Positions 38,031 to 61,722 of a DNA stretch of 64,000 nucleotides are shown one piece after another. The notes under the pieces were generated by a model. That model worked only from the letters and a program-made list of their open reading frames with translations. It did no database searches and was not told the DNA's origin. Origin of the DNA: an uncultured Chloroflexia bacterium (GTDB lineage: Bacteria; Chloroflexota; Anaerolineae; Anaerolineales; UBA4823); assembly GCA_963797475.1 (NCBI GenBank), contig CAWCPR010000012.1, positions 219,195 through 283,194 of the forward strand, in the 5' to 3' direction. Position 1 is the stretch's first letter. Each line of letters begins with the position of its first letter. A program made the position numbers and the translations under genes.

Positions 38031-38051
38031 AAAACAATATTCTCACTTGAT

Positions 38052-38216: not shown

Positions 38217-38232
38217 GAGAGTGTTGCAGAAT

Positions 38233-38703: not shown

Positions 38704-38718
38704 CAGATCGGGGGCTCC

Positions 38719-40467: not shown

Positions 40468-41088
40468 GCGCCGCCTCCCCAAGGGGGCAGTGCGCTTGGT
40501 AAACGGCCAGAAGCGGTCAAAATGGCCGGCAAAGGCACCATTTGGGACGCTAGACCGGCGGAAACGGGCTAGAAGCGCGCTCACCGGCTCGCTTAACCGG
40601 GGAAATGCAATGCGAGTTGATTGTTAAAGGGCGAATATCAGGGGGAGATGCAAAAAACGCCGCGCCGAGAGCGCTTTCGTCAGGCTGAGCTCGAATTCTG
40701 CAACACTCTCCTTCTATGGGGCTTAGGTATTTTAAGTTCCCGGCACCGAGACCTTTCGGAAGCCGTGGTAAGTTTCAATCCCCTTCTATGGGGCTTAGGT
40801 ATTTTAAGCTGCTCTGGTCGGTTGGAGTCATACTGTGGGGTGTCTATGAGTTTCAATCCCCTTCTATGGGGCTTAGGTATTTTAAGACTTATGTCTGGGT
40901 ATTGTGGAAAATATTGAGGTTCAGTTTCAATCCCCTTCTATGGGGCTTAGGTATTTTAAGCCGCTTATGCGGAAGGCTCGCTCAACCCGAGCTAGTTTCA
41001 ATCCCCTTCTATGGGGCTTAGGTATTTTAAGCGGTCTGTCAGAGAATACGTCGAAGCGTGCTTGTACGAGTTTCAATCCCCTTCTATG

Positions 41089-43070
41089 GAGGGTTGGACT
41101 CGATTCTAACCCATGTTCCGTTTTTCGGAATATCAGCGGAACCTGAACGGAATACGGCAGGCAAAAAGCGGAATATGGTAATCATCATATTCTGCTGAAA
41201 CGGAACCCAGGCGGAACCTGGTATACAGCTTCAGGGCTAAGAGCGGAATACGGCACTCCCGGCATTCCGCTTGAACGGAATATGAGCGGCACACGCTTTG
41301 GAAAGCGAGCTTCAAAACGGAATACGCTGCTCCCAGGGGGTAAAATGGGGTTGAACCACACCCTGGCCGGGGAAGGAGCGAACCATGCCAGCCTTTTTCC
41401 TCTCCCATTGGCTCAAACTGTTCCAAAACCGCCTGATCCGGGCTCCCACAAAGTCTGAAGGGCTGCAAAACCTGGCGAGAAAGCCGATCAAGAGCCTGCC
41501 GGGCTCCGTCCAGGCATGCCCCATGGCGCTAAAGCATTTGCGTTTGCTGGGCCAACTGGATTGGAGCCGGTTTCCTGATCGACCGGACCAACGTTTTGCG
41601 CTAGGCGTGCCGCCGCTGCCGTATGTCTGCCTGGCGGCTGCTTACCTGATCAAGGTCGAACAGCACCTGATGTATGTGGCCGACCTGCGAGCCTACCTGG
41701 TGGAACATCCCGCTCTGATCTGGGTACTCGGTTTTCCGCTCAAACCTTCGACAGAATATCCCTGGGGTTTCGATGCGGATGCCAGCCTGCCCACGCACCG
41801 ACACTTGAGTCGGATGCTGCGCGATCTGCCCAATGCAAGTTTGCAGGTTTTGCTGGACGAAACGGTGCATCTCATCCAGTCCGAACTGGCCGCTGACAGC
41901 CACTTTGGGGATTGTGTTTCGCTCGATACGAAGCATGTGATTGCCTGGGTCAAGGAGAATAACCCCAAAGCCTACAGCGAAGGGCGGCGCTACGACAAAA
42001 CCCAGCAGCCGGCCGGTGACCCGGACTGCAAGCTGGGCTGCAAACGCAAGCACAACCAGCGCAAGAAAACCGAGTCGGTCGAGGCCATGCCCACGCCTAC
42101 CAAAGATGCTCGACCCGCCAAGCACACCAAAGCTGATGAATATTACTGGGGCTATGGCTCCGGCGTGGTGGCAACCAAAATCCCGGAGTGGGGCGAGTTT
42201 GTGCTGGCCGAACTGACCCAGACCTTTGACCATCCCGATGTCAGCTACTTCAAGCCGCTCATGGAGCAGGTCGAGCGCCGCCTGGGACGCAAGCCCAGTT
42301 ATGGCGCTTTTGACGCCGCCTTTGATGCCTTTTACGTCTATGAGTACTTCGACCCAGAAAAGGGCTTCGCCGCAGTGCCTTTCGTTGAACGCGGTGGGGC
42401 CAGCGAGCGCCAATTTGCCGCAGATGGCAGTCCGAAATGCGCTGCCGGGCTGCCGATGGTCTTGCGTTACACCTTCTGGTGCAAAACCACCCTCATTCCG
42501 CATGAACGCGCCCGCTATGTCTGTCCCCTACACTATCCAGAGAAAACCGCCGACGCTTGCCCTGCCAACGATGAACATTGGAACAAGAAAGGCTGCGTCA
42601 CAACCATCGCGGCCAGCATTGGCGCACGCTTGCGCTACCAGATCGATCGCAGCAGCCAGCAGTTCAAAGACGTACTCAAGCAACGCACTGCCACCGAGCG
42701 CATCAACAGCCAGGCTGTTGATCTGGGCATCGAACGCCCAAAGCTGCGCAACGCCGCCTCAATTGCCAACCATAACACCTTGACTTATGTCCTGATAAAC
42801 TTGCACGCCCTCCAGCGGGTTCGCCAGCGCAAAGCCGAGCGCAAACAGGCATCCGCCGCTTGAAAGAGCGTGCAATCCCATTCTAACCCGATTTGATCTC
42901 GGCTGGGGTGTGGTCCTCAGCCAGAAGGCGGGCCTAACTGGCCCGTTTTCGGTTTTTAAAGTGCTGATCCCTCCGTATTCCGATTGTTCTGCTAAAGCGG
43001 AATACGTTTTCCCTTTAAACGGAACCTGAACGGAATATCAGCGGATTACGCTTTACCGTGTCCTACCCTC
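41089..43070 (+). mobile_element. insertion sequence ('IS-A') inserted in a CRISPR repeat
   Basis: TIR GAGGGT(T/A)GGAC; duplicated target TTCTATG (7 bp, or 9 bp if the terminal G/C belong to the target). Confidence 0.92.
41385..42863 (+). CDS. DDE transposase (IS1182/ISNCY-like, Cys-rich insertion domain)
   Basis: SLDTKH, GDPDCKLGCKR, YYWGYG, FDAAFDA, PKCAAG...YVCP, RTATERINS. Confidence 0.85.
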   Translation: MPAFFLSHWLKLFQNRLIRAPTKSEGLQNLARKPIKSLPGSVQACPMALKHLRLLGQLDWSRFPDRPDQRFALGVPPLPYVCLAAAYLIKVEQHLMYVADLRAYLVEHPALIWVLGFPLKPSTEYPWGFDADASLPTHRHLSRMLRDLPNASLQVLLDETVHLIQSELAADSHFGDCVSLDTKHVIAWVKENNPKAYSEGRRYDKTQQPAGDPDCKLGCKRKHNQRKKTESVEAMPTPTKDARPAKHTKADEYYWGYGSGVVATKIPEWGEFVLAELTQTFDHPDVSYFKPLMEQVERRLGRKPSYGAFDAAFDAFYVYEYFDPEKGFAAVPFVERGGASERQFAADGSPKCAAGLPMVLRYTFWCKTTLIPHERARYVCPLHYPEKTADACPANDEHWNKKGCVTTIAASIGARLRYQIDRSSQQFKDVLKQRTATERINSQAVDLGIERPKLRNAASIANHNTLTYVLINLHALQRVRQRKAERKQASAA

Positions 43071-46000
43071 TTCTATGGGGCTTAGGTATTTTAAGTTAGG
43101 ACTAATCTGCATTTTGGTTTTCTGGCTGCTTGTTTCAATCCCCTTCTATGGGGCTTAGGTATTTTAAGGATTTCGACAATCAGAGAAGAGCAAGCATCAA
43201 AAGTTTCAATCCCCTTCTATGGGGCTTAGGTATTTTAAGATTCAGGAGGAGTAAATGAAGACACTTGTGTTGTTTTGTTTCAATCCCCTTCTATGGGGCT
43301 TAGGTATTTTAAGCTTGCGGTCCTGCACAAGGCAACCTGAATATCAGCCTGTTTCAATCCCCTTCTATGGGGCTTAGGTATTTTAAGAAAAGCAAAGTTG
43401 AAAGTTGGGGTGTCGATGTAATAGTTTCAATCCCCTTCTATGGGGCTTAGGTATTTTAAGTGGCAGATTTGGGCGAGATGTCTTGAGCCACTATTAGGTT
43501 TCAATCCCCTTCTATGGGGCTTAGGTATTTTAAGCTGTGAAGGCTTTAGTGTGATAAAAAGTAGGTAAAAGTTTCAATCCCCTTCTATGGGGCTTAGGTA
43601 TTTTAAGTTTGAGAGGATTGTTGGATTCCGTCTAGGTGAGTTTAGTTTCAATCCCCTTCTATGGGGCTTAGGTATTTTAAGTACCCCCACAAATGTCGGT
43701 TTAATCGATAAGATTTTGTTTCAATCCCCTTCTATGGGGCTTAGGTATTTTAAGCAATGAGGACTTGGCAATGGATTGTTTTGGTATTTCGTTTCAATCC
43801 CCTTCTATGGGGCTTAGGTATTTTAAGGCCCACGCCCACGCCGGTACCAACCGAGCCAGCACGTTTCAATCCCCTTCTATGGGGCTTAGGTATTTTAAGC
43901 TATCTGCCCATGATCCTGCAACCGATGAACAACAAGTTTCAATCCCCTTCTATGGGGCTTAGGTATTTTAAGATACCTCCACCGGCGCCTGCACAGACCC
44001 CGCTTCGTTTCAATCCCCTTCTATGGGGCTTAGGTATTTTAAGTCGCCAAGGCAGTCGAAGAAGACACCAGCGCAACAAAGTTTCAATCCCCTTCTATGG
44101 GGCTTAGGTATTTTAAGTTTGGCAAAACTGCTACCCGTAGCCAGTAGCCGGTTTCAATCCCCTTCTATGGGGCTTAGGTATTTTAAGCTTGAAGCCTTTG
44201 CCCGATTCCTGCTTTATACAGGTTTCAATCCCCTTCTATGGGGCTTAGGGATTTTAAGACTGGGCATTGGCTCAGCACAATGTGGGTTCCCGGGTTTCAA
44301 TCCCCTTCTATGGGGCTTAGGTATTTTAAGAAGACACGAGCTACCATGGCTTTATGTCTGTTGAGTTTCAATCCCCTTCTATGGGGCTTAGGTATTTTAA
44401 GGGTAGCAGAACTGCGCTTACCGGATGGCCTATTAGGGTTTCAATCCCCTTCTATGGGGCTTAGGTATTTTAAGAATCGATCGCGATAATTGGGACAACC
44501 TAACTGTTGGTTTCAATCCCCTTCTATGGGGCTTAGGTATTTTAAGCTGGTTAATCCACTTTCTGTGGACGAAGAATGAGAAAGTTTCAATCCCCTTCTA
44601 TGGGGCTTAGGTATTTTAAGGTAATAAAGGTTCAAGAGTACCTCCTATGCTTTAAAGTTTCAATCCCCTTCTATGGGGCTTAGGTATTTTAAGAAACTTT
44701 TAGGGCAGAGTATCGCGCTGCACTAAAATCGTTTCAATCCCCTTCTATGGGGCTTAGGTATTTTAAGGATCTTTGGTGGGGAATCCGGTGAGGGATTCAC
44801 TGAGTTTCAATCCCCTTCTATGGGGCTTAGGGATTTTAAGCTTAAACTTGTCGTGAAAACCGGCTAAGAAATTTTTGTTTCAATCCCCTTCTATGGGGCT
44901 TAGGTATTTTAAGGTGTCCTTCGGCTTAGAAATTATAAGTCGTAAATAGTGTTTCAATCCCCTTCTATGGGGCTTAGGTATTTTAAGTGGTGGATCGCGC
45001 GAGAAAGGGACGAAGCAAGTTTCAATCCCCTTCTATGGGGCTTAGGTATTTTAAGTAAATTCAACTTCCGGATTAAAGGAGGTAACATGAAGTTTCAATC
45101 CCCTTCTATGGGGCTTAGGTATTTTAAGCCTACACACCCACACCGATCCCGGCTCCGAAGGGTTTCAATCCCCTTCTATGGGGCTTAGGTATTTTAAGGA
45201 GAGTCATCCATAGCTTTATGCGAAGGATGAAAAGTTTCAATCCCCTTCTATGGGGCTTAGGTATTTTAAGAACTTCGCCGAAAGAACGATTTAGGAGACT
45301 GGAAAGAGTTTCAATCCCCTTCTATGGGGCTTAGGTATTTTAAGTATGTACATCGTCGCAGCGCTGTTTTTGGCATTAGGTTTCAATCCCCTTCTATGGG
45401 GCTTAGGTATTTTAAGTGGAAACACCCATCGAAACACCGGTCGAAGCTACTGAGTTTCAATCCCCTTCTATGGGGCTTAGGTATTTTAAGAGATCCTCAA
45501 ATCACCGAGGTGATCCTCCTGCATGGGTTTCAATCCCCTTCTATGGGGCTTAGGTATTTTAAGGTCCCGCGACCTGGGCCGCAGCAAAATACTTCTGGAA
45601 GTTTCAATCCCCTTCTATGGGGCTTAGGTATTTTAAGCTGGACACGTAAAACAGGACGAGATTGGAACAGTTTCAATCCCCTTCTATGGGGCTTAGGTAT
45701 TTTAAGTGACAACTCAACCACTGATGTGGAAGAGCGTGAAGTTTCAATCCCCTTCTATGGGGCTTAGGTATTTTAAGTCAACGCCAAGTTGGCTGGTCTC
45801 GATTCCGCAGTCGGTTTCAATCCCCTTCTATGGGGCTTAGGTATTTTAAGCTGGTACCAGAGCTTCTGCTTGCGCCGCTGGTCTTCGTTTCAATCCCCTT
45901 CTATGGGGCTTAGGTATTTTAAGCGCGCGAAACTTCCATCATTTTTCTCCCCCTTTACGTTTCAATCCCCTTCTATGGGGCTTAGGTATTTTAAGGTTCG

Positions 46001-47928
46001 CACCCTGCGCCGATCGGCTGCCCCGCCGGTTTCAATCCCCTTCTATGGGGCTTAGGTATTTTAAGAACCCGCTGCCCCCGCTAACAACAAGGCTGCCGGT
46101 TTCAATCCCCTTCTATGGGGCTTAGGTATTTTAAGCAGTAACGTGGACGCCAGCGCCAAGCGTAACGCCGGTTTCAATCCCCTTCTATGGGGCTTAGGGT
46201 ATTTTAAGGGGGCTATTATCGGGGCTCTAGTGGGATATTTGTGTTTCAATCCCCTTCTATGGGGCTTAGGTATTTTAAGAGGGCCTACGGGTTGGGTGAG
46301 GTTGAGGGCGACTGTTTCAATCCCCTTCTATGGGGCTTAGGTATTTTAAGTCGCTCCGACTGCCGGCCTGCCCGCCGCACCAGTTGTGTTTCAATCCCCT
46401 TCTATGGGGCTTAGGTATTTTAAGTAACCCCCACCGTTTCCGCCGTTACCTGGCCGGAAAGTTTCAATCCCCTTCTATGGGGCTTAGGGATTTTAAGGCC
46501 GGAGGCTGTGCCAGAATGAAAGGAAAGGAAATGTTTCAATCCCCTTCTATGGGGCTTAGGTATTTTAAGACAAATGGAAGGCGGAATAAGTCCGTTGAGT
46601 GAGTTTCAATCCCCTTCTATGGGGCTTAGGTATTTTAAGAAGGCTGGAGTTGCTCTCCAGACTTGCGCTAGAGTTTCAATCCCCTTCTATGGGGCTTAGG
46701 TATTTTAAGCAAAAGCTAGTTTCTTGAAGAGGAGGACGTAGAGTCTTGTTTCAATCCCCTTCTATGGGGCTTAGGTATTTTAAGACCCGACTATTAATGT
46801 CAAGACAGGTGATAATATTGTTTCAATCCCCTTCTATGGGGCTTAGGTATTTTAAGATCCCCGTGCCGATACCAACCCCAGTACCAACACTGTTTCAATC
46901 CCCTTCTATGGGGCTTAGGTATTTTAAGTTCCGCCGACGCCGGGTGGTGGTCCTGATTGGGTAAAGTTTCAATCCCCTTCTATGGGGCTTAGGTATTTTA
47001 AGATCTTCGACGGATTCGAGTGGCATATTCCATACGGTTTCAATCCCCTTCTATGGGGCTTAGGTATTTTAAGGATCGCGCTCCAGCCAAAAAGAAAGCC
47101 CACGAATACGTTTCAATCCCCTTCTATGGGGCTTAGGTATTTTAAAGAAGACTTCGGAAGCTTGATCTGATCGCTCTCATTGAGTTTCAATCCCCTTCTA
47201 TGGGGCTTAGGTATTTTAAGGACTCTGTGCCAGTCAGCGGAGCCGAACAACCCCAAGTTTCAATCCCCTTCTATGGGGCTTAGGTATTTTAAGCAAAGGC
47301 ACCCACAGTTACTTTTATGCCCACCCCGGGTTTCAATCCCCTTCTATGGGGCTTAGGATTTTAAGGCGGGAAGTCGCTCGACTTCGTCGAGAACATGACC
47401 AGTTTCAATCCCCTTCTATGGGGCTTAGGTATTTTAAGGATCCCAGCACGCTGGTGATCACGGGGAGCGGCCAGTTTCAATCCCCTTCTATGGGGCTTAG
47501 GTATTTTAAGTGCCGGAACCATTAAATCCGAACCAGCTGAGGAGATGTTTCAATCCCCTTCTATGGGGCTTAGGTATTTTAAGGAGAGAGGACTTGGACT
47601 TCGGGTTCAAGCAAGGGATGTTTCAATCCCCTTCTATGGGGCTTAGGTATTTTAAGTCCTACCCTTCAACGTTGGGGATTGGACATAATTGAGTTTCAAT
47701 CCCCTTCTATGGGGCTTAGGTATTTTAAGTGGAGCACTGGTCTTTGGCCGATGTTCTCAAGATAGTTTCAATCCCCTTCTATGGGGCTTAGGTATTTTAA
47801 GTCTTGTCCGTATCTTACTGGCCATTCTGGTGCTAATGTTTCAATCCCCTTCTATGGGGCTTAGGTATTTTAAGCCATCCGCGAGACCTTGGTCCACGCT
47901 CACGGCTGTAGTTTCAATCCCCTTCTAT

Positions 47929-49775
47929 GAGGGTTGGACCAGTCAATAGACTGGTTACGAAAACCGTAATCAGTGCCTGCTCTACCATATCATCTACAGC
48001 CAAAAACGTAATCAGTCATTCTTCTGGTTACGTTTTTTCGTAACCGGTGCGTAACCGGTCGGTCCGGTGTTTGAGAAAAGCGTAACCAGTCCGAGGACTG
48101 ATTACGCTGCCTCACCCGTCCTCTCCGGGGCTAAAATGGGGATACGCCTATCCGTTTTTAGCCAAAAAGGAGAGAAAACCATGTTTGGCAAGCCAATTGT
48201 ATCCCGTTTTTCGCACCTGACGCGGCGTTTCCGAAGCGCGAGGCTCAAGAGGCCGGACCTGCACAGCGCCTGGAAGCAGCGCCAGTGCCTGCCGGATTTT
48301 GTGCAGAGACTCCCCGGTTGCGCAGCGTTACCTGGACTTGCTGGGGCCACTGCACTGGGACCGCCTGCCCGAGCGCAATTTGACGCGCAACTGGGGCCAA
48401 CCCGCCACGCCCTACGCCGCTTTCATTGCCGCTTATCTGCTCAAGCTGAATGAAGGCAAAAAATCGCTGGTTGATCTGCGGGTTTCATTGCTCGAACATC
48501 CGGAACTGATCTGGCTGCTGGGATTCCCGCTGCTGGTTTCATACCCCGCCAAACTGGGGTTTGACGTAGAGGCCAGCTTGCCTACCTCCCGCCATCTGAG
48601 CCGCATGCTGCGCGAAATGCCCAACACCGTGCTCCAGTTCCTGCTGGCCAACTCGGTGCGACTGATCCGGGAAGAATTACGCCAACACGAAATCGAAGTG
48701 GGCGTGTGCATCAGCATGGATACGAAGCACATTTTGGCGTGGGTTTGCGAGAACAACCCCAAAGCCTATGTGGAGAACCGCTTCGACAAGACCCAACAAC
48801 CTGCCGGCGATCCGGACTGCAAGCTGGGCTGCAAACGCCGCCACAACCGCCGCAAAGCCGAGAGCGATTTGGAAGTTTCCTCAACACCCACCAAGAACCC
48901 GATCCCGGCCAGAGACAAGGCTGTGGGGGAGTTTTATTGGGGGTATGGCTCGGGCGTTGTGGTCTCCAAGGTGCCTGGCTGGGGCGAAGTGGTGCTGGCC
49001 GAGCTGACCCAAACCTTCGATCGGGCGGATGTATCTTACTTCTTCCCGCTCATGACCGCCACCGAGCAGCGCCTGGGATTTCAGCCGCGCTTTGCCACCT
49101 TCGATGCGGCATTTGATGCGTGGTACGTATACGATTATTTTCATCGCAGCGATGATCCAGCGGCTTTTGCGGCCGTGCCTTTCTCCGAAAAAGGCGGCTA
49201 CAAGGCCAAAGGCCGCTCCTTCAGCACCGAAGGTCTACCCATCTGTGCTGCTAGATTGCCCATGCCGCTCCGTTTCACCTTCACAGACCGCACCACCTGC
49301 CTGGTGGAGCATGAGCGCGGTAAATATGTCTGCCCGCTGCGCTACCCACAACCCACCGCCGAGGCCTGCCCGGTCAACCACAAAACCTGGGAAAAGCAGG
49401 GCTGCACAGTGATGATGCCCACGAGTATCGGCGCTCGCCTGCGTTACACCCTGGACCGAGATGGTCAAGCCTACAAATCCATCTACAAGCAGCGCACCGC
49501 AGTAGAACGCATCAACAGCCAGGCGGTCGAGCTGGGCATCGAGCGGCCACACATCCGCAATGGCGCTGCGATTGCCAACCAGAACACCATGATCTACATC
49601 CTGATCAATTTGCGCTTGCTACAGCGTATCCGAAGCCATAAGCCTGAAAATGGCTGATTTGTTAAAGAACTGGATTGGCTGAAAGCCAAAAGCGTAATCA
49701 GTGATTTGACTGGTTACGCTTTTTTTGTCCAAAACGTAACCAGTGGCGTAATCAGTCCTGACTCGTCCAACCCTC
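47929..49775 (+). mobile_element. insertion sequence ('IS-B') inserted in a CRISPR repeat
   Basis: Perfect TIR GAGGGTTGGAC; duplicated target CTTCTAT (47922-47928 / 49776-49782). Confidence 0.92.
48181..49657 (+). CDS. DDE transposase, diverged paralog of IS-A (frameshift near 48305)
   Basis: SMDTKH, GDPDCKLGCKR, FYWGYG, FDAAFDA, RTAVERINS. ATG 48181 (GGAG RBS) is one base out of frame with the 48299 ORF. Confidence 0.85.
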
Positions 49776-51907
49776 CTTCTATGGGGCTTAGGTATTTTAA
49801 GAAACCCCAGCCTCCCAAGCCGGAGAAACCGGCAACTAGTTTCAATCCCCTTCTATGGGGCTTAGGTATTTTAAGCCTCAAACCAAGAAAACCTCGAAAT
49901 AAGGAGATAGAACGTTTCAATCCCCTTCTATGGGGCTTAGGTATTTTAAGAAGGGAAAGACGTTCTCTTGGTACCAGCACTGTTTAGTTTCAATCCCCTT
50001 CTATGGGGCTTAGGTATTTTAAGAAGCAGGTGTCACCGGCACTGACGGCTTGTACTACACGTTTCAATCCCCTTCTATGGGGCTTAGGTATTTTAAGCAA
50101 GTACGTCTTGGAGCAAAGGCTCATCGAAGAAAGTTTCAATCCCCTTCTATGGGGCTTAGGTATTTTAAGAGCGCAAGGGTCTAACCCCCCGAATGACCAC
50201 ACGTTTCAATCCCCTTCTATGGGGCTTAGGTATTTTAAGCTCGAGGACGATTTAACGAGTGGCGAACGAGCCAGAGTTTCAATCCCCTTCTATGGGGCTT
50301 AGGTATTTTAAGCAAGACGCCTCCCCCGCCGACCACAACTCCCGCTGGTTTCAATCCCCTTCTATGGGGCTTAGGTATTTTAAGAATCCGAGACTGCAAA
50401 CTGTGGAGAGCCACCCACGTTTCAATCCCCTTCTATGGGGCTTAGGTATTTTAAGCCGCAGCAGTGTTGGCATGGGCAACGTGGGAACTCGTTTCAATCC
50501 CCTTCTATGGGGCTTAGGTATTTTAAGTAGCCAATAACGGCGAGTCCGGAAATGTCACGACGTTTCAATCCCCTTCTATGGGGCTTAGGTATTTTAAGCA
50601 GGCGCGGTGATAACAATTACCGAGCAGGTCAAGAGTTTCAATCCCCTTCTATGGGGCTTAGGTATTTTAAGATGCACCTCCTCCGCCACAGGAATACCTG
50701 CTGAGTTTCAATCCCCTTCTATGGGGCTTAGGTATTTTAAGTATCCGGGCCCGGGTGGAGGAAACAAGCCCGCAAGTTTCAATCCCCTTCTATGGGGCTT
50801 AGGTATTTTAAGCCATGCAAGATGGAGTAGTCGATTGGGCGGGATATGTTTCAATCCCCTTCTATGGGGCTTAGGTATTTTAAGCCGCGTTGGTCTGCTC
50901 CTGCTGGTTGCTGGCGTGATTGTTTCAATCCCCTTCTATGGGGCTTAGGTATTTTAAGAAAGACCTTTCTATGACTGGCAACGCGTGTTCGCTTGGTTTC
51001 AATCCCCTTCTATGGGGCTTAGGTATTTTAAGACACTGCGCTCCCCCAACGCTCACCCCCACGGTGACGGTTTCAATCCCCTTCTATGGGGCTTAGGTAT
51101 TTTAAGTTTTTGCGACAACCCTTGGTCGAACCAGTGGCCCGGGTTTCAATCCCCTTCTATGGGGCTTAGGTATTTTAAGCAGCACCGTCACTGGCCAGAA
51201 CATTGTCGTAAATGGTTTCAATCCCCTTCTATGGGGCTTAGGTATTTTAAGGGGTCGAGACCGAAGCAATCCTCGGCAACTGTCCTATGTTTCAATCCCC
51301 TTCTATGGGGCTTAGGTATTTTAAGTTACGGGCGAAAACATCATCTGGGACCACTGCAAGTGGGTTTCAATCCCCTTCTATGGGGCTTAGGTATTTTAAG
51401 AAAGGTCACTCAGTTGGCCCCTCCCTTGAGAAAGGAGAGTTTCAATCCCCTTCTATGGGGCTTAGGTATTTTAAGTTGTGGGGCAAAACTGCCCGGGGGT
51501 GATATCTTGTTTCAATCCCCTTCTATGGGGCTTAGGTATTTTAAGTCGCAATTTTAACGATCCAAGCAATTCGTGCAAGTTTCAATCCCCTTCTATGGGG
51601 CTTAGGTATTTTAAGTCAGCGGTAGCAGCGATGCAGATATTGCGGGGGTCAAGTTTCAATCCCCTTCTATGGGGCTTAGGTATTTTAAGCGGGGAGCCGG
51701 CGGAAGAACCGTCAAGTACATCGTGTTTCAATCCCCTTCTATGGGGCTTAGGTATTTTAAGTTTTGATTTAGATTAAGGAGAAATTAGACAATGCTAGTT
51801 TCAATCCCCTTCTATGGGGCTTAGGTATTTTAAGCCTCACCCCTGAGCAGCAGAAAGCTCAGCGAGACCTGTTTCAATCCCCTTCTATGGGGCTTAGGTA
51901 TTTTAAG

Positions 51908-52200
51908 ACTATCCTAAATATCTCTTCGATCCGCTTGTTTTCTAATTATACCTCTCTGGTCCACGCGATTGTGCCGGCTTTGCGAACGACCTTCTGATGA
52001 ACGATAAAAAGCTTTGAAATGGCCCAATATGCTCATTTCACTATCTTCAAAATCTCTCGATTTCACTCCGATTCTCATCCGTTTGCACAAAAGCTCGCGT
52101 TGCGAAGGGTATTCGCTCGGAAGTGAATGCGTTCACGAGTGCTCGACGCTTTCGATAAACAAAATCATGCAGGATGGAATGCTCGGTTTGTTGGGCAAAC
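51908..52200 (-). promoter_or_regulatory. CRISPR leader region
   Basis: Non-coding, AT-richer stretch between the last intact repeat and the adaptation operon; boundaries are approximate. Confidence 0.65.
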
Positions 52201-52243
52201 AGCGAATGTTCGCCGTTTCTGGGCCAGAGAATTATTCGGATTC

Positions 52244-53906
52244 CTACCGGCGAACCTCCGAGCAATCATTGTACACGCATAATTTTAACCGATCCAGGCG
52301 GAAAGTGCGGTTTGCGCGGCGGGTGTGGCAGTAAGCGATCAGATAGAGCCGTTCCCCGCGCGGCTCCACCATCAGAGGCGTCAGATGGCGGTACTCTGCA
52401 GAGTGGCGCCCAGAAGCTTTGTAAAGCACGTCGATCGATTCTTCGCGGTCAATCGCCCCTTAAATCGCCATCACCATTTCTTCCGAAGGCGGCTCAGGAG
52501 GATCACTTTCAGGAATCCATTCAGGCTGTGGTTTGATTTGCTGCCGGTCGAGAATCGACCGCAGCATGGCAGTGGCTTTACGAGCGGCGGCGGCGCGTAA
52601 TGAATGATCCAGATTCCCGATTAATTTGGAAAGCAGGCCGGGAGGCGAAACAGCCGCATTTTGAAGGCTTTCGGCCAGCAGCATCAGGCTGAGCAGGTAG
52701 GTATGGTCTGATTTGTTCAGGGTTTTGGGCGTGGATTTGGACCTGGCTTCCGGCCCGAGCACTTCTGGGTTATTTTGCAGATAGGTTAGTTGGATGATGG
52801 AGAGATCGTGATCGGAGATTAGCCCCCGCCTCCCAAGTTGTTGCAGGATACGCTGCGCCTGCCACGAGTTCCAGAGCCACGTGGCGCGGTGAGAGCAGGT
52901 GTTCCAGGTCGCGCCGGAGCCCGGGGGATTTTCGCAAGGTTTTCAGTTCTTCCGGGTCAGTGAATTCCAGTACCGGACCGGGAATTACACGGATGGTTGG
53001 TTCATCCGCAAGACGCTGAGTTAACGCAGCTGGCGGTTTTTCGCCCAGGCCGCGCTCGAGAATTTCCGGCAATGAAGGCAAGTGTGGCGAACTCGTTCTC
53101 CTGATAGGGACGAGCTGTTCTGTAACATCTCGCTGAGCTGCCAGCCGTAGGGCCGGTGTATCCAGCACGTAAACGCCCGGCGCGGTCGGGTCTAGATATC
53201 TTTCGAGCTCCCATAATAAATCCCAGGCAGGCGGGAAAGGTATTTTTAATACCTGGTCGTTCTCCAGGCTCCAGCGCTCGGGAGGCAGGTCAACGAACTG
53301 ACCGGCGCCTGAGCCTTCCAGCAATGCCGCGCCCAGTGGGGTTAACTGCTCTCCCTCGCAGAGCCCCAAAGCCTGCAATCCCACCAGCTCCTGGCGGTGG
53401 GCGGCGCCTAGCGGCGGGGCGCCTGAAGAGGCCTGACTCAAATCCATTCCATCCACCAGCCGGCGCAAAAGTTCTTTGCGGAGGTTGCGGTATTTTTCTC
53501 CCGTTGGCGCCTGCAGCCAGGCCTCCAACAGATGGGAAATCTGGCGCAGAAAAGGCCAGGAAAACCATTCTTGCACCAGGAGCGTAGGATAAGGCGCCTC
53601 GTCCTCATCCAATAAGGAGGCTGATTGGCACAAGCGCAACCAAAATGAAGTGCGGGGTATGGGGCGGGGCGGCGCGGTAGGTCGGCGCGATGCAGCCGAA
53701 CGGAACTCCGGATCGGATCCGGTCATTTCCGTCTGTTCTTCTGCAAGGCTGTGTACTTCAGCCAGGCTCCGCAGCCCGCGCCGTTTCAATACAGTCCTGA
53801 GGGTTTGAACATCCGCGCCTTCCCCTTTTCGAAAAACGCGGCGAACTACGCTTAACAGATTGAAGATGTATTCAATCGGCAGGTAGTCAATTCGTCGCAT
53901 GGTCAT
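52244..53906 (-). CDS. WYL-domain protein with helicase-associated (Helicase_C_3-like) region, split by two frameshifts (~52870, ~52465)
   Basis: C-terminal YRHLTPLMVE...LYLIAYCHTRRANRTFRLDRL is a WYL signature. ORFs 52770-53906, 52460-52762 and 52244-52429 read through as one protein after two single-base corrections. Confidence 0.72.
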
Positions 53907-53940
53907 TTCGCCAGATAGTCAGGTAGTCGTTCGTCAAGTA

Positions 53941-53980
53941 GTCTGATAGTCGCAATTCGCTGACCAGGCGACTATCAGAC
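53941..53980. promoter_or_regulatory. 13-bp perfect inverted repeat between cas2 and the WYL gene
   Basis: GTCTGATAGTCGC-N14-GCGACTATCAGAC, plus several TAGTC direct copies at 53884-53951. Confidence 0.5.
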
Positions 53981-54003
53981 GATACGACGATGAGACAATA
54001 GGA

Positions 54004-54288
54004 CTATTGAATGAAAAACGTCCTCTCTTCGGTTAATCTTCCAGCGCCGATGACGATGGTCCGTCCCACGTCTTCTGCGCCAATAAAGTAGAAGCGGATC
54101 GTATCCTGGGCTTCGCGTACGAAGGGCTTCAGGCGTTTCTTCAGTTTTTCGATCTGCGCCGGCAGCAGGCGGCATTCGAACACGCTGTACTGCACGCGCG
54201 TCCCGAAATCTTCCAGCGTTTTCGCCGCTTTCGTCCGGCGGTTATCATTGCTGATGTCATAACTGACGATGAGGAATTGTTTGGTCAT
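54004..54288 (-). CDS. cas2: CRISPR-associated endonuclease Cas2
   Basis: IVSYDIS...RR.K..K.LEDFGTRVQYSVFEC...DTIRFY. Confidence 0.97.
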   Translation of the reverse strand: MTKQFLIVSYDISNDNRRTKAAKTLEDFGTRVQYSVFECRLLPAQIEKLKKRLKPFVREAQDTIRFYFIGAEDVGRTIVIGAGRLTEERTFFIQ

Positions 54289-54290
54289 TC

Positions 54291-55376
54291 CTACCTGACC
54301 ATGAACGGTATGTATCGTTCCACTTCTCCCAGGATCACCCTCGCCATCAGGTAAGCCTGCAGCTCGAAGATCCTCCGGTAGCTGGTTTGTTCGCCTGTCG
54401 CGGGATACAGAATCTGTTCGTTCACCCGGGCTTCATACAGGCCGATAAACCGCTTTCGGGCTGCTTCTTTGAGGTAGATGGGACGCATCTCTTGATCTTG
54501 AGCAGAGGGTTGCTGCTCCCTTTTCGTTGGAGCATTGTCCTCGCTGTCATCGTCATCCTCGTTGCTGCGACGGCGGGGCTGGCCCACCTCGAAATCTCTG
54601 AGCGAGAAGAATGGCCGGTTCGCGGCGGTCAGAATAATGGAGTCCACGATGATCGGGCGAAACTCTTCCTCCAGGTCGAGCGCCATCGACGGTTTGTTGT
54701 AATCGATGGCGTGGAAGAATCCCAGGTCCGGGTCCAGGCCGGCTACCTGGCAGGCAGCAACCAAGTCATTGAGCAGGAGGGTGTAGCCGAAAGAAAGCAG
54801 AGCGTTAATCGGGTCAGTCGGCGGATAGTAGGCGCGCCGCTCAAACCCCCAGGAATTCCCATCGGCAGGGGGCCGCAGGATTTTTCGCATCAGCCCGAAA
54901 TATTCTTTTGCCGCCAGCCCTTCGCGCCCCCGCAGATCATCCAGATTTTGGGATGTTTCCACTTGCCGGCGCATGGAGTCCATGGTAGCCAGCGCGTTAC
55001 GCGCCCAGAGGGCCCCTTCGGCGTGGCGCTGCACCAACACGCGCTGGTTGTTCACCTTCCCGCTGACAATGGCCTGGGCAATCGCCATCGCCCTGGCAGG
55101 GTCATTCACGGCCAGCGCCTGGGTCATTCGCAAGCGGCTGTGGCGGTGTTCCCGTCCCAGCACACGCATCCCTTGTGTAAAAATCACGGGCACCCGCCGC
55201 CGGGTGAGCGCGAACAGGGTGGGGACGGTGATATTGACCCCTGTGCCCATCACCACCACCCGGTCCACCTTGATCATCGGGATGTCCTGGAGAACTTCCT
55301 GGCCGCGCTTCACAACCAGCCGCTGGCCTTGCTTGTGGACCTGAACCCCGGTTTCCATCACATACAAAGTGGCCAT
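54291..55376 (-). CDS. cas1: CRISPR-associated endonuclease Cas1
   Basis: MATLYV (AGGAGG RBS), LRGREG, PPTDPINALLSFGY, GFFH, LDLEEEFRP. Confidence 0.97.
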   Translation of the reverse strand: MATLYVMETGVQVHKQGQRLVVKRGQEVLQDIPMIKVDRVVVMGTGVNITVPTLFALTRRRVPVIFTQGMRVLGREHRHSRLRMTQALAVNDPARAMAIAQAIVSGKVNNQRVLVQRHAEGALWARNALATMDSMRRQVETSQNLDDLRGREGLAAKEYFGLMRKILRPPADGNSWGFERRAYYPPTDPINALLSFGYTLLLNDLVAACQVAGLDPDLGFFHAIDYNKPSMALDLEEEFRPIIVDSIILTAANRPFFSLRDFEVGQPRRRSNEDDDDSEDNAPTKREQQPSAQDQEMRPIYLKEAARKRFIGLYEARVNEQILYPATGEQTSYRRIFELQAYLMARVILGEVERYIPFMVR

Positions 55377-55390
55377 CTTCGCCTCCTTCT

Positions 55391-56758
55391 CTACTCGACT
55401 ACATACCCCAGCCATTCAAGCCTGTCGGCTGGAGAGAGGATCCGCGTCTTCTCTGCATTGACTTTGAGGCGGATTTGCGCCAGGGCCGCGATGGACTCGT
55501 TATAGGCCTTCTCCGCCGCGCTTTGTTCCGGGCACAGAATAACCCAGTCATCGGCAAACCGCACCAGCCGGAACCCGGCTTTGGTTACGGAAACGTCGAA
55601 AGAGTGCAGATAAATATTCGCCAGCAGAGGGGAAAGCGGGCTTCCCTGCAACACCCCCACCTGAGTGGGAGCCACGTTTCGATAGAGGAGGTAAGCAGTA
55701 ACCGCGACCCCGGCCGCCGCGCCAGCCGCGCCTCCGCCGGCCAGTAAACCTTTTTTGAGAATTTCACGGCCTGCAGGGGTCTTCAGCGCAGCGACCGCGG
55801 CAGTGCCTGCTCGGACCAGGGAACGTTTTGCCCAGCTCGTTCCCAGGAGCAGGCCGCCCGCAGCCACCTGCTGCACAGCCCTTTGCTGCAGGGCGCGGCG
55901 CTCCAGTTCATCTTCACCTGTTCGCCGGTAGAAACCTTCTTCTTCCCCATCTGGTTCCTGATCGGTCTCCTCGAAAGTTCCGGAGTAGTAAGCGCCTGCA
56001 GGTTGATAAGAGGCTGGTTCATACCGCGCCTCAGAGTATGGGCCATATTGGCCTTGGTCGAATTGCTCCTGGCTAAACGTGTTCAGCGCCCAACCAATCC
56101 CCTGTTTGACGCGGTTGGAAGCCTTTTCCCATTCCTGCGATAGCCAACCGGTTTTCTCATCCACCGTTCCTCCAGGCGGCATTCCATGCTCCAACACGCC
56201 AGCGTCCAGCCATTTCTGCAGCAGATCCACCACCCGGCCATCGTTGATTCGCTTCTCGATCCTGCGGACCAATAAGCGGTGATCCAGGCTGTCGAAGCAA
56301 GAGGCGATATCTCCGTCGACAACCCAACGATAACCAGCCACGCGCAGCCGGCGCGCGCAAATGATGGCATCCAGGGTGGATCGGCCGGGCCTGAACCCGA
56401 AATTGCAGGGTAAGAAACCGGGTTCATACAACGGCTCCATCACCTGCTGGGCAGCCCGTTGAGCCACCCGGTCAGCGACATTGAGCACCGCGATCTGGCG
56501 CATTCCGCCGCTTTTTTTCTTGATGTTGAAAACTCCAGGCGCCTGGGGTTGGTAGCGGCCCTTGATGAGCTGGTGCCTCAAGGCGCTCAGTTGAGCGGGT
56601 AAGTCGCGTTCAAACTCCGCCAGAGTGACGCCATCCGGTCCGGCGCTGCGCATTCGCCGATAGCGGGGTATATTCCCTCGCACAGAGCGCCAGGCTGTGA
56701 GCAGGTTATCTGGTGAAGCCAGTTGGTCGATCAGTTTATCTTGTCCGTCCATAGTCAT
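55391..56758 (-). CDS. stand-alone group-II-like reverse transcriptase linked to cas1, with a large internal insertion
   Basis: SAGPDG, KKSGGMRQI...DRVAQ, FGFRPGRS, VDGDIASCFD, QGSPLSPLLANIYL, RFADD, EWLGY. No thumb/X or En domain after motif 7. Confidence 0.93.
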   Translation of the reverse strand: MTMDGQDKLIDQLASPDNLLTAWRSVRGNIPRYRRMRSAGPDGVTLAEFERDLPAQLSALRHQLIKGRYQPQAPGVFNIKKKSGGMRQIAVLNVADRVAQRAAQQVMEPLYEPGFLPCNFGFRPGRSTLDAIICARRLRVAGYRWVVDGDIASCFDSLDHRLLVRRIEKRINDGRVVDLLQKWLDAGVLEHGMPPGGTVDEKTGWLSQEWEKASNRVKQGIGWALNTFSQEQFDQGQYGPYSEARYEPASYQPAGAYYSGTFEETDQEPDGEEEGFYRRTGEDELERRALQQRAVQQVAAGGLLLGTSWAKRSLVRAGTAAVAALKTPAGREILKKGLLAGGGAAGAAAGVAVTAYLLYRNVAPTQVGVLQGSPLSPLLANIYLHSFDVSVTKAGFRLVRFADDWVILCPEQSAAEKAYNESIAALAQIRLKVNAEKTRILSPADRLEWLGYVVE

Positions 56759-57051
56759 ATCTCCCCATACTTTTTAATCAGGTGTTGATCGAACTCGTCA
56801 TCATCCAATACGGTTACAGGCATGGGCACAGCCGCTAACACCAGGTGCCCGCTGTCCAGGAAGAGCACCCACTTACAGGCGCGTCCAAATGTCAGATCAA
56901 TCAACCTGCCTTCCGCCTTCGCTACCCGGGCTGCACGTCGAACGGGCGCCGAATCCCATCGCCCGGCGGCGAGCACGCGATCCGGCGCTACAAGACCGGC
57001 CTCACCCACTGGCCACAGGTAGGGCGTACGAGATGTTTTTGGTTTGCTCAT
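56755..57051 (-). CDS. RemA / DUF370 family small DNA-binding protein
   Basis: V..DRVLA....SAPVRR....AK.EGRLIDLTFGR......LDSGHLVLA matches the RemA/DUF370 pattern. Confidence 0.78.
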   Translation of the reverse strand: MSKPKTSRTPYLWPVGEAGLVAPDRVLAAGRWDSAPVRRAARVAKAEGRLIDLTFGRACKWVLFLDSGHLVLAAVPMPVTVLDDDEFDQHLIKKYGEI

Positions 57052-57737
57052 GATTGCCTCCAGGTTGAGAAGAATTCCTCGACAATATCTGCATGCTGCT
57101 CTCTAGTTGCTGGCTCGGCTTTTTGATGGTTCCATCCTTCGACTGCTTCAAATGCCAGTGCGTCAGCAAGGCGGTTCTGCTCACGAGATATGTGATGAAA
57201 AGTGACCTTCTCGAAGCGTTCCGTTAATGTACGCAGGCGTGCTTTCGCCTGGCGTAAGCCGGGAGCATGCGCTTCCGCGCGTCCCTGCATCTGATCGACC
57301 ACCACCCTACTATCGCAAAGCACTTCGACTTCCCCGATGTGCTCCTGGTTTTTTATTTGGAGCAAACGCTCCAACGCAAAAATTGCCGCGGCGTACTCGG
57401 CCTCGTTGCAGGTCAAAGAGCCTGCCCGTTGTTGCCACCAGTAACAGATTTTTCCCTGTTCGTCTCGCACAATAGCCGCCAGCCCGCTGGTATGTCGATC
57501 GGGTCGGATCGCGCCGTCGGTGTTGACAATTACTTTCCGGACTGATTTGCGAGATCCCCGGCTACGATGGGATCGCACGCCATTGCCGCCTTTGGCGGGA
57601 ACCCGCGTAGCGGGCAATGGCGCGCCATTTCTTTTGGGTGGATCTTCGGTCGATTGCTGGGTCTTGTTCTTTGGGTGGTTCAATTGATTTCCCTTTTGAT
57701 CGCGTCCGTTGGCTTGAATGCCCCCATTTTCCACCAA
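57048..57737 (-). CDS. ribonuclease HI family protein with a basic, disordered N-terminal extension
   Basis: VNTDGA, NEAEY, CDSRVVVDQM, HISREQNRLADALA: all four acidic catalytic residues are present. Confidence 0.9.
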   Translation of the reverse strand: MVENGGIQANGRDQKGNQLNHPKNKTQQSTEDPPKRNGAPLPATRVPAKGGNGVRSHRSRGSRKSVRKVIVNTDGAIRPDRHTSGLAAIVRDEQGKICYWWQQRAGSLTCNEAEYAAAIFALERLLQIKNQEHIGEVEVLCDSRVVVDQMQGRAEAHAPGLRQAKARLRTLTERFEKVTFHHISREQNRLADALAFEAVEGWNHQKAEPATREQHADIVEEFFSTWRQS

Positions 57738-58161
57738 TTCTGAAGGCCTGCATATCCGACAAAGTAGGATATTTCGTAAAATCCGGCTGTCTCAAATACT
57801 TTCCACTGCAGATCTATGATTATCTCAGCCTATCGAGAGAAATCGCCGGTATAACAGAGGTAACCAAAAAGGAGTGAGAGCCATGGAAGCCAACCGTGAA
57901 GTCCTGGCCCGTTTTGACAGGTTGATCGTCGTGACGATCTGGAAAGTTGTCCTGGAAACCTTGACGCTCCCGCTCGTTATGCTGCTCCTCTATCATTTGC
58001 TCTCCAGGGGCTGAGCAAACCGCCGCTCGTGACCCGTTTTTGGTAAAGCCTCTTTTGGCGGTTTGCTCCGACAAGTCAGAACCTTAAAAATAGAATAGTT
58101 CGTATGCGGTCTGGGTGAAGGATTTGCGTGGAAACTGGCTGCAAAAGAAGGAGGTGTTTGT

Positions 58162-58854
58162 ATGCCGACAGTCGTCGTTTCCTGGAATGGTCAGTGCTGT
58201 AGTGAGACCATTCAGCAGAACTTGCGCTCGAAAATGTTCGAATTGTATGAAGTTTCAGCGCGCTTGTTCAGCGGCTTTTTCCCTGGAACGATCACGAAAA
58301 CGATGTTTGATGGGAGGGTAATTCCAGGGAAGATATTGTTATCTTCCTGTCTGTTCTCGGGCGACCCAATTCCCCCTACCCTTGAAAAAGTGAACGAGGA
58401 CCTGTACGCAACTGGGGAGACAGGTCTCTATGGCGTGCAATTTCCCCTGTTCGATCCCCGCAAATTCAATTCGCTGGCAGTGCTGGCGCACAACGATCAC
58501 TTAAGCTTCGTATTCCTGCGCAGCGCAGATCCCAAACTGGATGGGCGAATGGTCCAGGTGCTGCGCCCACAACGAAGTAAAGACCATTCCCGGGCTCCGG
58601 CGTATGAACACCTGCTCGCAGCTCCGGAGATCGATCTGCGATATTACCTGGAGCGGTGGATGGGGGGATTATTGGGCTGGGTGAAACATTTCTACGTGCC
58701 CAACCTCTCGTATTGGGCCTGGGTCGACAATCCGGGATATGCCGGATATGAGCAGATTTCACCGGATGATCGTCGTTCTCGGGACGAAATATTCTTCTAT
58801 CTACGCGACGCGTTTGAGGAAGAGGCGGAAGCCTGGAAATCCTACAGTCTCTAA
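58162..58854 (+). CDS. hypothetical protein
   Basis: 230-aa ORF with AAGGAGGT RBS, on the opposite strand to the cas genes; no family recognised. Confidence 0.7.
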   Translation: MPTVVVSWNGQCCSETIQQNLRSKMFELYEVSARLFSGFFPGTITKTMFDGRVIPGKILLSSCLFSGDPIPPTLEKVNEDLYATGETGLYGVQFPLFDPRKFNSLAVLAHNDHLSFVFLRSADPKLDGRMVQVLRPQRSKDHSRAPAYEHLLAAPEIDLRYYLERWMGGLLGWVKHFYVPNLSYWAWVDNPGYAGYEQISPDDRRSRDEIFFYLRDAFEEEAEAWKSYSL

Positions 58855-58979
58855 TATCAAAGAAAATCAGGGATGGAAGATGCGCCAGGCGATTGGATGG
58901 AGATCGAAAGCGAGCGCCTGGACCAGCTTGCGCTCGAAGAAAAACGTCAGCGAAATCACGGGACGTAAGGATTATGTTA

Positions 58980-59361: not shown

Positions 59362-59386
59362 ATTTGATCCTACCTCTAAGGATTCA

Positions 59387-61689: not shown

Positions 61690-61722
61690 GAACCACTCTC
61701 CGGGTCGCGGGAAAACCAAAAA

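Follow-up and report, generated by a model that had tools for sequence, protein, structure and literature searches.

How a CRISPR system that employs a reverse transcriptase (RT) arrives at a double-stranded DNA spacer is a matter of debate: what removes the RNA strand, when it does so, and which host factors are needed. This question is raised by an operon in a 64,000-nucleotide (nt) stretch of DNA from an uncultured Chloroflexia bacterium (Anaerolineales, UBA4823; assembly GCA_963797475.1, contig CAWCPR010000012.1, positions 219,195 to 283,194), hereafter the window, in which genes for an RNase H and a small RemA-like (DUF370) protein precede those for an RT, Cas1 and Cas2 beside a type III CRISPR array. 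The Marinomonas and Thiomicrospira enzymes studied so far give no genetic handle on RNA removal, because any RNase H acting there would come from the host; the operon described here encodes a dedicated one, and this step becomes directly testable using clean mutants. The explanation that we consider likely is that the genes form the adaptation operon of a type III-D-like CRISPR system, composed of a thumbless, stand-alone RT, Cas1-Cas2, and dedicated accessory proteins that co-evolve with the RT. Judging from its gene content, such an operon probably makes new CRISPR memories from RNA.

Gene order and catalytic residues of the operon

The five genes lie on the minus strand in the order RNase H, RemA-like, RT, cas1, cas2 (Table 1). 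Those for RNase H and the RemA-like protein share a 4-nt stop/start overlap at 57048-57051, and a second 4-nt overlap at 56755-56758 joins the RemA-like gene to that of the RT. The RT stop codon is followed by a 14-nt spacer (AGAAGGAGGCGAAG) before the ATG of cas1, which is preceded by an AGGAGG ribosome-binding site, and the gap between cas1 and cas2 is 2 nt. A first-pass annotation of this DNA, made by a model from the sequence and its open reading frames (ORFs), had described a co-oriented operon of six genes with these same ATGA overlaps and these same gaps, including a ribosome-binding site for cas1. The ORF coordinates bear out both overlaps, both gaps are seen in the sequence and five of the genes are exactly as described, but the sixth, encoding a WYL-domain protein, is not a single intact gene. 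The annotation also held that the RT keeps its FADD motif and the RNase H its D-E-D-D catalytic set, with which our alignments agree.

The module has the hallmarks of RT-assisted adaptation, namely a group-II-like RT that is encoded next to cas1 and whose YxDD-type active site is intact, Cas1 and Cas2 proteins with conserved integrase motifs, and linkage to an RNA-targeting effector module and an array. The RT retains the FADD motif (F401-A-D403-D404) along with D148 and D150, and these Asp residues are invariant in 16/16 sequences. Cas1 matches PDB 7cr6 (E 4.5e-43), with the stretches EGLAA..YF and FHA...ALDL.EEFRP aligned. Between its catalytic domain and C-terminal helices, Cas1 also carries an acidic, low-complexity insertion containing a D/E run (residues ~263-300), which is unaligned to solved Cas1 structures.

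The RNase H scores 85.4 bits with PF13456 (cut-off 21.6), which places it in that family. Its residues D74, E114, D142 and D192 are invariant in all 23 of the 23 aligned homologues and align with the solved RNase H1 structures 3u3g and 4h8k (PDB 3u3g, E 1.7e-17). The basic N-terminal tail differs in length between homologues. It is the sole PF13456 (RVT_3-type) match in the genome, which elsewhere encodes two canonical RNase HI proteins (PF00075, 158 and 145 bits) and one RNase HII. The operon RNase H is an extra copy beside these canonical enzymes and not a housekeeping gene, which fits a role dedicated to the operon.

Conservation of the gene order

An alignment of 41 RemA-like sequences was used to pull related loci from metagenomes. 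The RNase H gene lies directly upstream of the RemA-like gene in 23 of these 24 RemA-seeded loci, and an RT lies downstream in 21/21 contigs that extend past RemA. Fifteen loci show Cas1, 13 show Cas2 and 10 show the WYL protein; contigs lacking these genes end before reaching them, except for that of locus L079, which extends 417 nt past cas2 with no WYL match. The order RNase H-RemA-RT-Cas1-Cas2 recurs in two genomes (G013, whose RT is 79% identical, and G316, 50%) and in two loci from metagenome-assembled genomes (MAGs) of Anaerolineales (L082) and Anaerolineaceae (L083). Gene coupling is conserved too, with a 4-nt RNase H/RemA overlap in 16/23 loci and a RemA-RT distance of at most 9 nt, or an overlap, in 17/18. 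In five loci (L062, L063, L066, L069 and L082), the operon is followed on its own strand by an array of the repeat family found in the window, and cas1 is directly downstream in every member of the RT clade whose contig is long enough.

Since this gene order recurs in dozens of independent contigs, the arrangement is far beyond chance. The first-pass annotation had named a lack of synteny between RNase H, DUF370 and RT-cas1 elsewhere as grounds for rejecting its reading, and the reading withstands this test, since both genes accompany RT-cas1 in the RemA-seeded loci and in the four further loci. The operon is nonetheless rare: a close RT was found in one of 60 relatives (G013) and in one of 400 genomes sampled from the class (G556). 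Locus L074 is the sole RemA-RT-Cas1-Cas2 locus without an RNase H gene, and has array-like tandem repeats upstream instead (~1500-1950).

The reverse transcriptase clade and its accessory genes

The RT scores 248 bits with TIGR04416, under the equivalog cut-off of 300. It ends 4 residues past motif 7 and therefore has no thumb/X domain. Alignment to PDB 6AR1 covers residues 3-181 and 184-267, such that the large insertion before motif 4 (Table 1) falls between positions 181 and 184 of the GsI-IIC RT. The RT alignment divides the insertion into an acidic portion that varies and a hydrophobic, Gly/Ala-rich helical portion that is conserved. An AlphaFold2 model is confident in the fingers and palm, and its predicted local distance difference test (pLDDT) values are mostly below 50 for residues 188-368, too low to assign the insertion a fold. 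The mean hydropathy of the Gly/Ala-rich helix, estimated by hand, is ~1.4, which is borderline, and we make no claim that it spans a membrane.

Among 98 RTs, an insertion of 118-172 amino acids (aa) is limited to the clade of the window RT, a Chloroflexia group (Roseiflexus, Chloroflexaceae, Oscillochloris) and two outliers (Poribacteria and Blastocatellia), all remaining RTs having 3-11 aa at this site. A search for homologues of the insertion alone gave 10 matches among 8000 crowded candidates, and is uninformative on the size of the family. Scanning genome contigs with the single RT gave 125 pattern matches, none of which was confirmed; scanning with the RT alignment, whose motifs are generic for RTs, gave 80 loci, 12 with cas1 and 68 without a Cas1 match. 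The named hosts of the RT relatives are MAGs of Anaerolineales, Anaerolineaceae, Roseiflexus, Chloroflexaceae and Oscillochloris.

A tree was built from 53 of the 98 RTs, comprising all that are Cas1-linked and every third of the others, with the insertion columns dropped and four short rows left out. The 18 RemA-linked RTs form a clade (Shimodaira-Hasegawa-like approximate likelihood ratio test support 100), sister (93) to six Chloroflexia RTs (99). The window RT groups with other Cas1-linked RTs, apart from thumb-bearing group-II-type RTs, at a weak node (support 42).

The sister clade also carries RNase H, but without RemA: its slot is occupied by another gene, which we call X442, or by nothing. 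The orders seen are RNase H-X442-RT-Cas1 (L084, L087 and L088), RNase H-RT-Cas1-Cas2 (L094) and RNase H-X442-405aa-RT-Cas1-Cas2 (G556); the contigs of L089 and L090 are cut off upstream. X442 matches no Pfam or PADLOC family, and comparing it with the RemA profile by hhalign gave no relation (probability 0.1%). A lead from the Atlas, to be taken as a lead only, points to SPFH/Band-7 or vault-shoulder folds for X442, which are also ring formers. Neither RNase H nor a RemA-like gene was seen in the insertion-less RT-Cas1 modules G041, G051, G053, L096 and L098. Since RNase H is present in both the RemA-linked and the sister clades and missing from the insertion-less modules, it tracks one RT clade, while the gene in the middle is exchangeable. 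The link of RNase H to the RT module is solid.

The RemA-like protein

The RemA-like protein scores 42.6 bits with the NCBIfam RemA equivalog (NF046064), for which the cut-off is 140, and we therefore regard it as a protein of the DUF370 fold and not as a RemA orthologue. It is the sole PF04025 match in its genome, and matches to it occur in just 46 of 401 sampled genomes of the phylum. Approximately 100 clusters close to it were found in a protein collection, with 53-85% identity and nearly all 71-121 aa in length. One member of that collection, P0101, is a single 410-aa ORF in which a RemA-like domain is fused to RT; this gene may be split or damaged, because its RT part stops inside the insertion.

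RemA itself is a DNA-binding transcription activator whose octameric ring is shaped by Arg18, Pro29 and Asp59, and for which Arg50 and Arg51 are each essential for DNA binding, according to the accessible part of that work (PMC8481266). A profile search with the RemA-like protein matched the Geobacillus RemA structure (PDB 7BM2, E 1.3e-14). The ring-interface residues are kept, as R25, P36 and D66; across the 41 aligned RemA-like sequences, R25 is at least 90% conserved and the other two are invariant. In the window R57 takes the place of Arg50, a position at which Arg, Lys, Gln and His all occur; that of Arg51 is held by Ala both in the window (A58) and in the consensus, and that of Arg53 by Lys, such that the DNA-binding pair is not retained. 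The same alignment shows new tryptophans, of which Trp13 and Trp61 are invariant and Trp32 nearly so. By these patterns of conservation it is a DUF370-fold protein that is probably oligomeric and presents a remodelled nucleic-acid surface.

The first-pass annotation had cast RemA as a DNA-wrapping factor that helps integration. This idea is not supported: the Arg51 position is alanine, and in five leaders a 10-bp periodicity of A, as expected of a RemA-type footprint, was no stronger than in shuffled sequences (80, 26, 158, 224 and 385 of 1000 shuffles reached the observed value). A complex prediction for the RT and RemA-like alignments returned a score of 0.00 in two runs made without controls, and speaks neither for nor against binding.

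In a tree of RemA proteins, 44 operon-type rows fall on one side of a long branch (support 100/98) and 27 other Chloroflexota RemA proteins on the other; one further sequence, from genome G348, was entered twice (L029 and L053). G348 encodes an unrelated, insertion-less RT-Cas1 module with its own RemA gene between cas1 and cas2, and this RemA sits nearer to the ordinary RemA proteins, which suggests a second recruitment of RemA to RT-Cas1. The RemA/DUF370 fold has apparently been recruited to CRISPR adaptation twice.

Leader, array and neighbouring genes

The coordinates of the operon and its surroundings are collected in Table 1. Read in the sense of the CRISPR RNA (crRNA), which is that of the operon strand, the repeat has ATTGAAAC as its end. 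Allowing up to 4 mismatches, the array counts 98 repeats; with up to 5 it counts 100, starting from ~40700. Spacers are mostly 33-38 nt. The 28 leader-proximal repeats are uninterrupted, while further on the array is interrupted by two unrelated insertions of ~2 kb, at 40995-43132 and 47838-49839. Another copy of the first, 98% identical, lies elsewhere on this contig, and the second is single-copy and encodes an IS1182-like transposase. Further transposase genes lie at 37037-40467. An Rfam search of 51800-59500 reported only the CRISPR-DR10 repeat, under its gathering score, and a promoter and terminator scan gave nothing above shuffled sequences. Candidate sites at which a regulator or an integration host factor could act are the conserved motifs of the leader (Table 1).

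Table 1. Positions of the operon, CRISPR array and neighbouring features in the window, and of X442 genes in related loci
Feature	Position	Strand	Description
CRISPR array	40772..51907	-	37-nt repeat, crRNA sense CTTAAAATACCTAAGCCCCATAGAAGGGGATTGAAAC
CRISPR leader	51908..52243	-	~335 bp; from alignment of five leaders
Leader TATAAT	51950-51945		invariant; 38 nt before repeat 1
Second TTCGCAA motif of leader	51986-51980		conserved in five leaders
Leader inverted repeat	52116-52102		GCGAATACCCTTCGC; conserved in five leaders
Broken gene for p52/Tfb2-like multi-winged-helix and WYL regulator	52244..53906	-	frameshift and in-frame TAA
Cas2	54004..54288	-	94 aa; PF09827, E 6.9e-24; TIGR01573
Cas1 integrase	54291..55376	-	361 aa from MATLYV; PF01867, E 2.6e-71; TIGR00287, 230 bits
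RT, stand-alone, group-II-intron-like	55391..56758	-	455 aa (453 from second ATG); PF00078, E 4.2e-34; insertion of ~172 aa (residues ~192-364) before motif 4
RemA-like (DUF370)	56755..57051	-	98 aa; motif PYLWPVG...GRLIDLTYGRACKWVLFLDSGH; PF04025, E 7.3e-14, 52.1 bits (cut-off 26); distinct operon-linked subfamily
RNase H, type 1	57048..57737	-	229-aa ORF from TTG; RVT_3/PF13456 family, E 3.9e-24; catalytic core from ~residue 67
Divergent 230-aa ORF	58162..58854	+	upstream of RNase H gene; no family
cas6	59387-60274	-	
482-aa gene	60271-61719	-	no assigned family
Type III RAMP (repeat-associated mysterious protein)	61781-63973	-	TIGR03986, 351.9 bits (cut-off 161)
X442 gene in RemA slot	L084 2080-3408; L087 2621-4099; L088; L089; L168 (G556) ~9221-10285		440-490 aa

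The effector genes lie upstream of the operon, on the same strand. Beyond the window follow a Csx7-like gene (123.7 bits, cut-off 108) and Csx10-like and Cas10-like genes that score under their cut-offs; from these genes, together with cas6 and the RAMP, we take the effector module to be type III-D-like. In the window, cas6 and the RNase H gene stand 1.65 kb apart, and in L063 they adjoin. The divergent 230-aa ORF that lies in this interval matches no Pfam or NCBIfam family, and tblastn finds homologues of 37-46% identity, likewise placed and oriented, in L060, L061 and L065.

Four other loci, L052 (G316), L053 (G348), L062 and L079, have a gene for a tubulin-like protein (PF13809, 900-950 aa) directly upstream of the RNase H or RT operon, followed by one for a 710-805-aa protein of no assigned family; in G348 a GTPase/DUF697 gene also follows these two. 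A weaker tubulin-like match (26% identity) is present in the genome of the window itself, ~16 kb beyond the window end (L081, 16358-17365).

The WYL regulator gene

The gene that follows cas2 is a pseudogene in the window, contrary to its earlier description as the sixth gene of the operon, and carries one frameshift and one in-frame TAA. Its pieces are 52770-53906, ~52463-52870 in another frame after a frameshift near 52870, and 52244-52459 after the TAA at 52460-52462. The WYL domain (42.8 bits, cut-off 21.8) is left only in the last piece (52244-52429); the window gene, interrupted twice, thus does not join an intact DNA-binding part to a WYL domain. It is important to note that the frameshift could be an assembly error, because the assembly is MAG-grade (88.5% complete, 6.8% contamination).

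Nine homologues of the WYL protein are single ORFs of 470-509 aa with a C-terminal PF13280 domain. A model of an intact homologue (pLDDT 79.6) was searched with Foldseek, and its first ~350 residues match the winged-helix arrays of TFIIH p52/Tfb2 (E 7e-5, although with a template modelling score of only 0.25), with weaker matches of the model to PafBC, CapW, BrxR and DriD. PADLOC models of Cas-associated WYL proteins also match the protein. An Atlas lead to PF13625 agrees with the p52/Tfb2-like reading. The protein is most likely a ligand-sensing transcription regulator of the operon or the array.

Proposed mechanism and alternative explanations

Each biochemical step proposed here is inferred from gene identities, catalytic residues, gene order and coupling, co-phylogeny with one RT clade, and the redundancy of RNase H in the genome. 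The RT would copy invader or cellular RNA into complementary DNA (cDNA), and the operon RNase H would degrade the RNA strand of the resulting RNA/cDNA hybrid. There are two points at which this could happen. The RNA might be removed before integration, allowing second-strand synthesis of a DNA prespacer, or it might be removed after Cas1-Cas2 has integrated an RNA-containing prespacer, with repair leaving an all-DNA spacer. In either case, Cas1-Cas2 would integrate at the repeat nearest the leader, which begins 335 bp past the operon. The RemA-like protein, whose translation is coupled to that of RNase H and RT on either side, may act as an oligomeric, ring-type cofactor with altered nucleic-acid-binding residues, and the p52-like WYL protein would regulate transcription of the operon or array, having apparently been inactivated in this genome. 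The first-pass annotation had suggested a dedicated RT, RNase H and integrase module with RNA removal before integration. The extra RNase H copy and the conserved synteny fit such a dedicated module. As to the order of steps, the accessible part of a study of Marinomonas RT-Cas1 prefers a route in which 3'-dN-tailed RNA or RNA/cDNA duplexes are integrated directly, and RNase H figures there only as an alternative (PMC11014452). Because that work favours direct integration, we consider a post-integration role for the RNase H at least as likely as a pre-integration one.

Several points weigh against our proposal. In the same accessible text, Marinomonas RT-Cas1 needs no dedicated RNase H, and the authors argue against a pre-integration RNase H (PMC11014452). 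The accessories are not obligatory for every relative of the RT, since L074 lacks RNase H and the distant insertion-type RT loci L085 and L086 lack both RNase H and RemA. The case for the RemA-like protein having a part in the mechanism is weakened by the loss of the Arg51 equivalent, which RemA needs for DNA binding. Comparing 94 spacers with the host genome gave 0 non-self matches, so there is no hint of self spacers derived from RNA. Finally, the broken regulator gene and the two array insertions mean that the system may be decaying here. Decay can also be put as an alternative in its own right, in which the module is a remnant in this genome, conserved elsewhere but no longer working. In addition to the frameshift and premature stop of the WYL gene and the two ~2-kb insertions, one of which has its 98% identical copy elsewhere on the contig, the 1.65-kb spacer between cas6 and an RNase H gene that it adjoins in L063 is in keeping with this. 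We nevertheless think it improbable, given that the five enzyme and cofactor ORFs are intact with their catalytic residues, as are the leader, its TATAAT and the 28 leader-proximal repeats, that the system need not fall silent when a WYL regulator of repressor type is lost, and that in a MAG-grade assembly the frameshift may not be real.

A different possibility concerns the RemA-like protein alone, which might be a transcription factor that switches on the operon or leader promoter, by itself or with the WYL protein, and that stands outside the chemistry of acquisition. RemA is a DNA-binding activator (again in the accessible part of PMC8481266), its ring-interface residues are kept here as R25, P36 and D66, and some factor is needed to read the conserved leader motifs and invariant TATAAT. 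The gene is, however, coupled between those of RNase H and RT in most loci, which is how a subunit would be placed; the RemA between cas1 and cas2 in G348 and the one RemA-RT fusion ORF are likewise typical of a subunit and not of a regulator. As the Arg51 equivalent is gone, the leaders lack 10-bp periodic A-rich sites above shuffles and the WYL protein is already encoded as a regulator, we regard this role as unlikely. Less likely again, in our view, and a matter for speculation, is a more elaborate form of the adaptation hypothesis, in which RNase H, a ring-forming middle protein and the insertion-bearing RT would constitute a multi-subunit reverse-transcription and integration factory on a ring scaffold, possibly tethered to the membrane or cytoskeleton. 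Such a factory would copy RNA, strip it and hand the product to Cas1-Cas2, and might be a cellular counterpart of the retroviral pre-integration complex, assembled from unrelated parts. What suggests it is that the RemA-like protein and X442, the latter by its SPFH/Band-7-like lead, both belong to ring-former families, that the RT insertion has conserved Gly/Ala-rich hydrophobic helices, and that tubulin-like (PF13809) neighbours recur, accompanied by GTPase/DUF697 in G348. That RT, RNase H and the middle protein are a defence or cDNA unit of their own, similar to a defence-associated RT (DRT) or a retron and merely parked beside cas1-cas2, seems to us very improbable. DRT and retron models do score on the RT, all under their cut-offs, and RNase H and RT stay together as a core around a middle gene that varies between RemA, X442 and none; yet cas1 is directly downstream in all members of the RT clade with long enough contigs, arrays follow on the same strand, the RT groups with Cas1-linked RTs (at the weak node of support 42), and neither the RNase H nor the RemA-like protein is represented among the PADLOC models. 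We can give scarcely any credence to the simplest alternative, that RNase H and DUF370 are housekeeping genes found beside cas genes by chance. Both families are widespread outside CRISPR loci, but here their synteny is held over RT identities of 36-79% in dozens of contigs, the genes overlap, the RemA-like proteins form a separate clade, and the housekeeping RNase H genes are elsewhere in the genome. Our conclusion is that the operon with its own accessory proteins is real and conserved, a variant of RT-assisted adaptation that has so far gone uncharacterised.

Comparison with known systems

We know of no role in CRISPR adaptation for the DUF370/RemA family, and the RNase H and RemA-like proteins are two parts of the operon that have not been studied in spacer acquisition. 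Full-text searches of the literature that paired DUF370/RemA with CRISPR or Cas1, or RNase H with either RT-Cas1 or Chloroflexi, returned only one passing mention, although supplements may hold more: a single sentence, left for future work, in which RNase H-like, DUF697 and DUF370 proteins are said to be prevalent beside novel Cas1 clades from hot springs (PMC9755687). The text of Silas et al. (2017) mentions none of RNase H, Chloroflex or thumb, although its supplements may show such neighbours; a 2021 FEMS review mentions neither RNase H nor Chloroflexi, and in the search listing Shah et al. (2018) has 0 occurrences of RNase H. This agrees with the opinion of the first-pass annotation that the full gene combination had not been characterised. 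If our explanation is correct, then this operon family encodes its own helpers, an RNase H that goes with the RT clade and a small protein of ring type, which is kept in some members and exchanged for another protein in others, and six genes would suffice as a compact system that records RNA into DNA.

The nearest known relatives are RT-CRISPR systems, and what is said of them here concerns the accessible parts of the papers cited. The type III-B RT-Cas1/Cas2 system of Marinomonas mediterranea (PMC11014452) shares a group-II-like RT with an F/YADD site, Cas1-Cas2, the type III setting and presumed spacers from RNA. Unlike the Marinomonas enzyme, the window RT is separate from Cas1 and Cas6 and carries an insertion of ~170 aa, and a dedicated RNase H and a RemA-like protein are not attributed to the Marinomonas locus in that part of the paper. 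The Thiomicrospira Cas6-RT-Cas1-Cas2 complex (PDB 7KFT; PMC8102632), whose structure is found by sequence from both the window RT and the window Cas1, resembles our module in having fingers and palm and no thumb/X domain, and thumbless CRISPR RTs were thus already known (PMC8102632). It differs in being a single fusion protein that has no insertion before motif 4 and no RNase H or DUF370 partner. A possible parallel is RT-CRISPR clade 9 of Toro et al. (2017), from Chloroflexi, in which the RT is separate from Cas1 and for which 'no complete operons are available' (PMC5541045). The traits shared with it are a stand-alone RT beside cas1 and Chloroflexota-type hosts, and the accessible part of that paper describes no RNase H or DUF370 neighbours for the clade.

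The accessory proteins have relatives of their own. The RemA-like protein resembles RemA of Bacillus subtilis and Geobacillus thermodenitrificans (PDB 7BM2; PMC8481266, in its accessible part) in its PF04025 domain and in its equivalents of the ring-shaping Arg18, Pro29 and Asp59, but differs in scoring below the equivalog cut-off, in forming a separate clade, in the change of Arg51 and Arg53 to Ala and Lys, in its new Trp residues, and in its setting in a cas operon and not among housekeeping genes. The WYL protein shares its C-terminal WYL domain (PF13280) with the defence regulators CapW, BrxR, PafBC and DriD, but its N-terminal ~400 aa resemble p52/Tfb2 winged-helix arrays and not a single helix-turn-helix, and the window copy is broken.

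Considered as a whole, the operon invites comparison with the RT-RNase H-integrase of retroviruses and long terminal repeat retroelements, in that one set of genes encodes the activities to synthesize DNA on RNA, to remove the RNA strand and to integrate the product. In contrast to retroviruses, each activity resides in a protein of its own, unrelated to the others; Cas1 does not belong to the DDE integrases, the RNase H is of the cellular RVT_3 type, and what is integrated is a spacer of ~35 bp and not a genome. The retroviral likeness is therefore one of analogy and not of shared descent.

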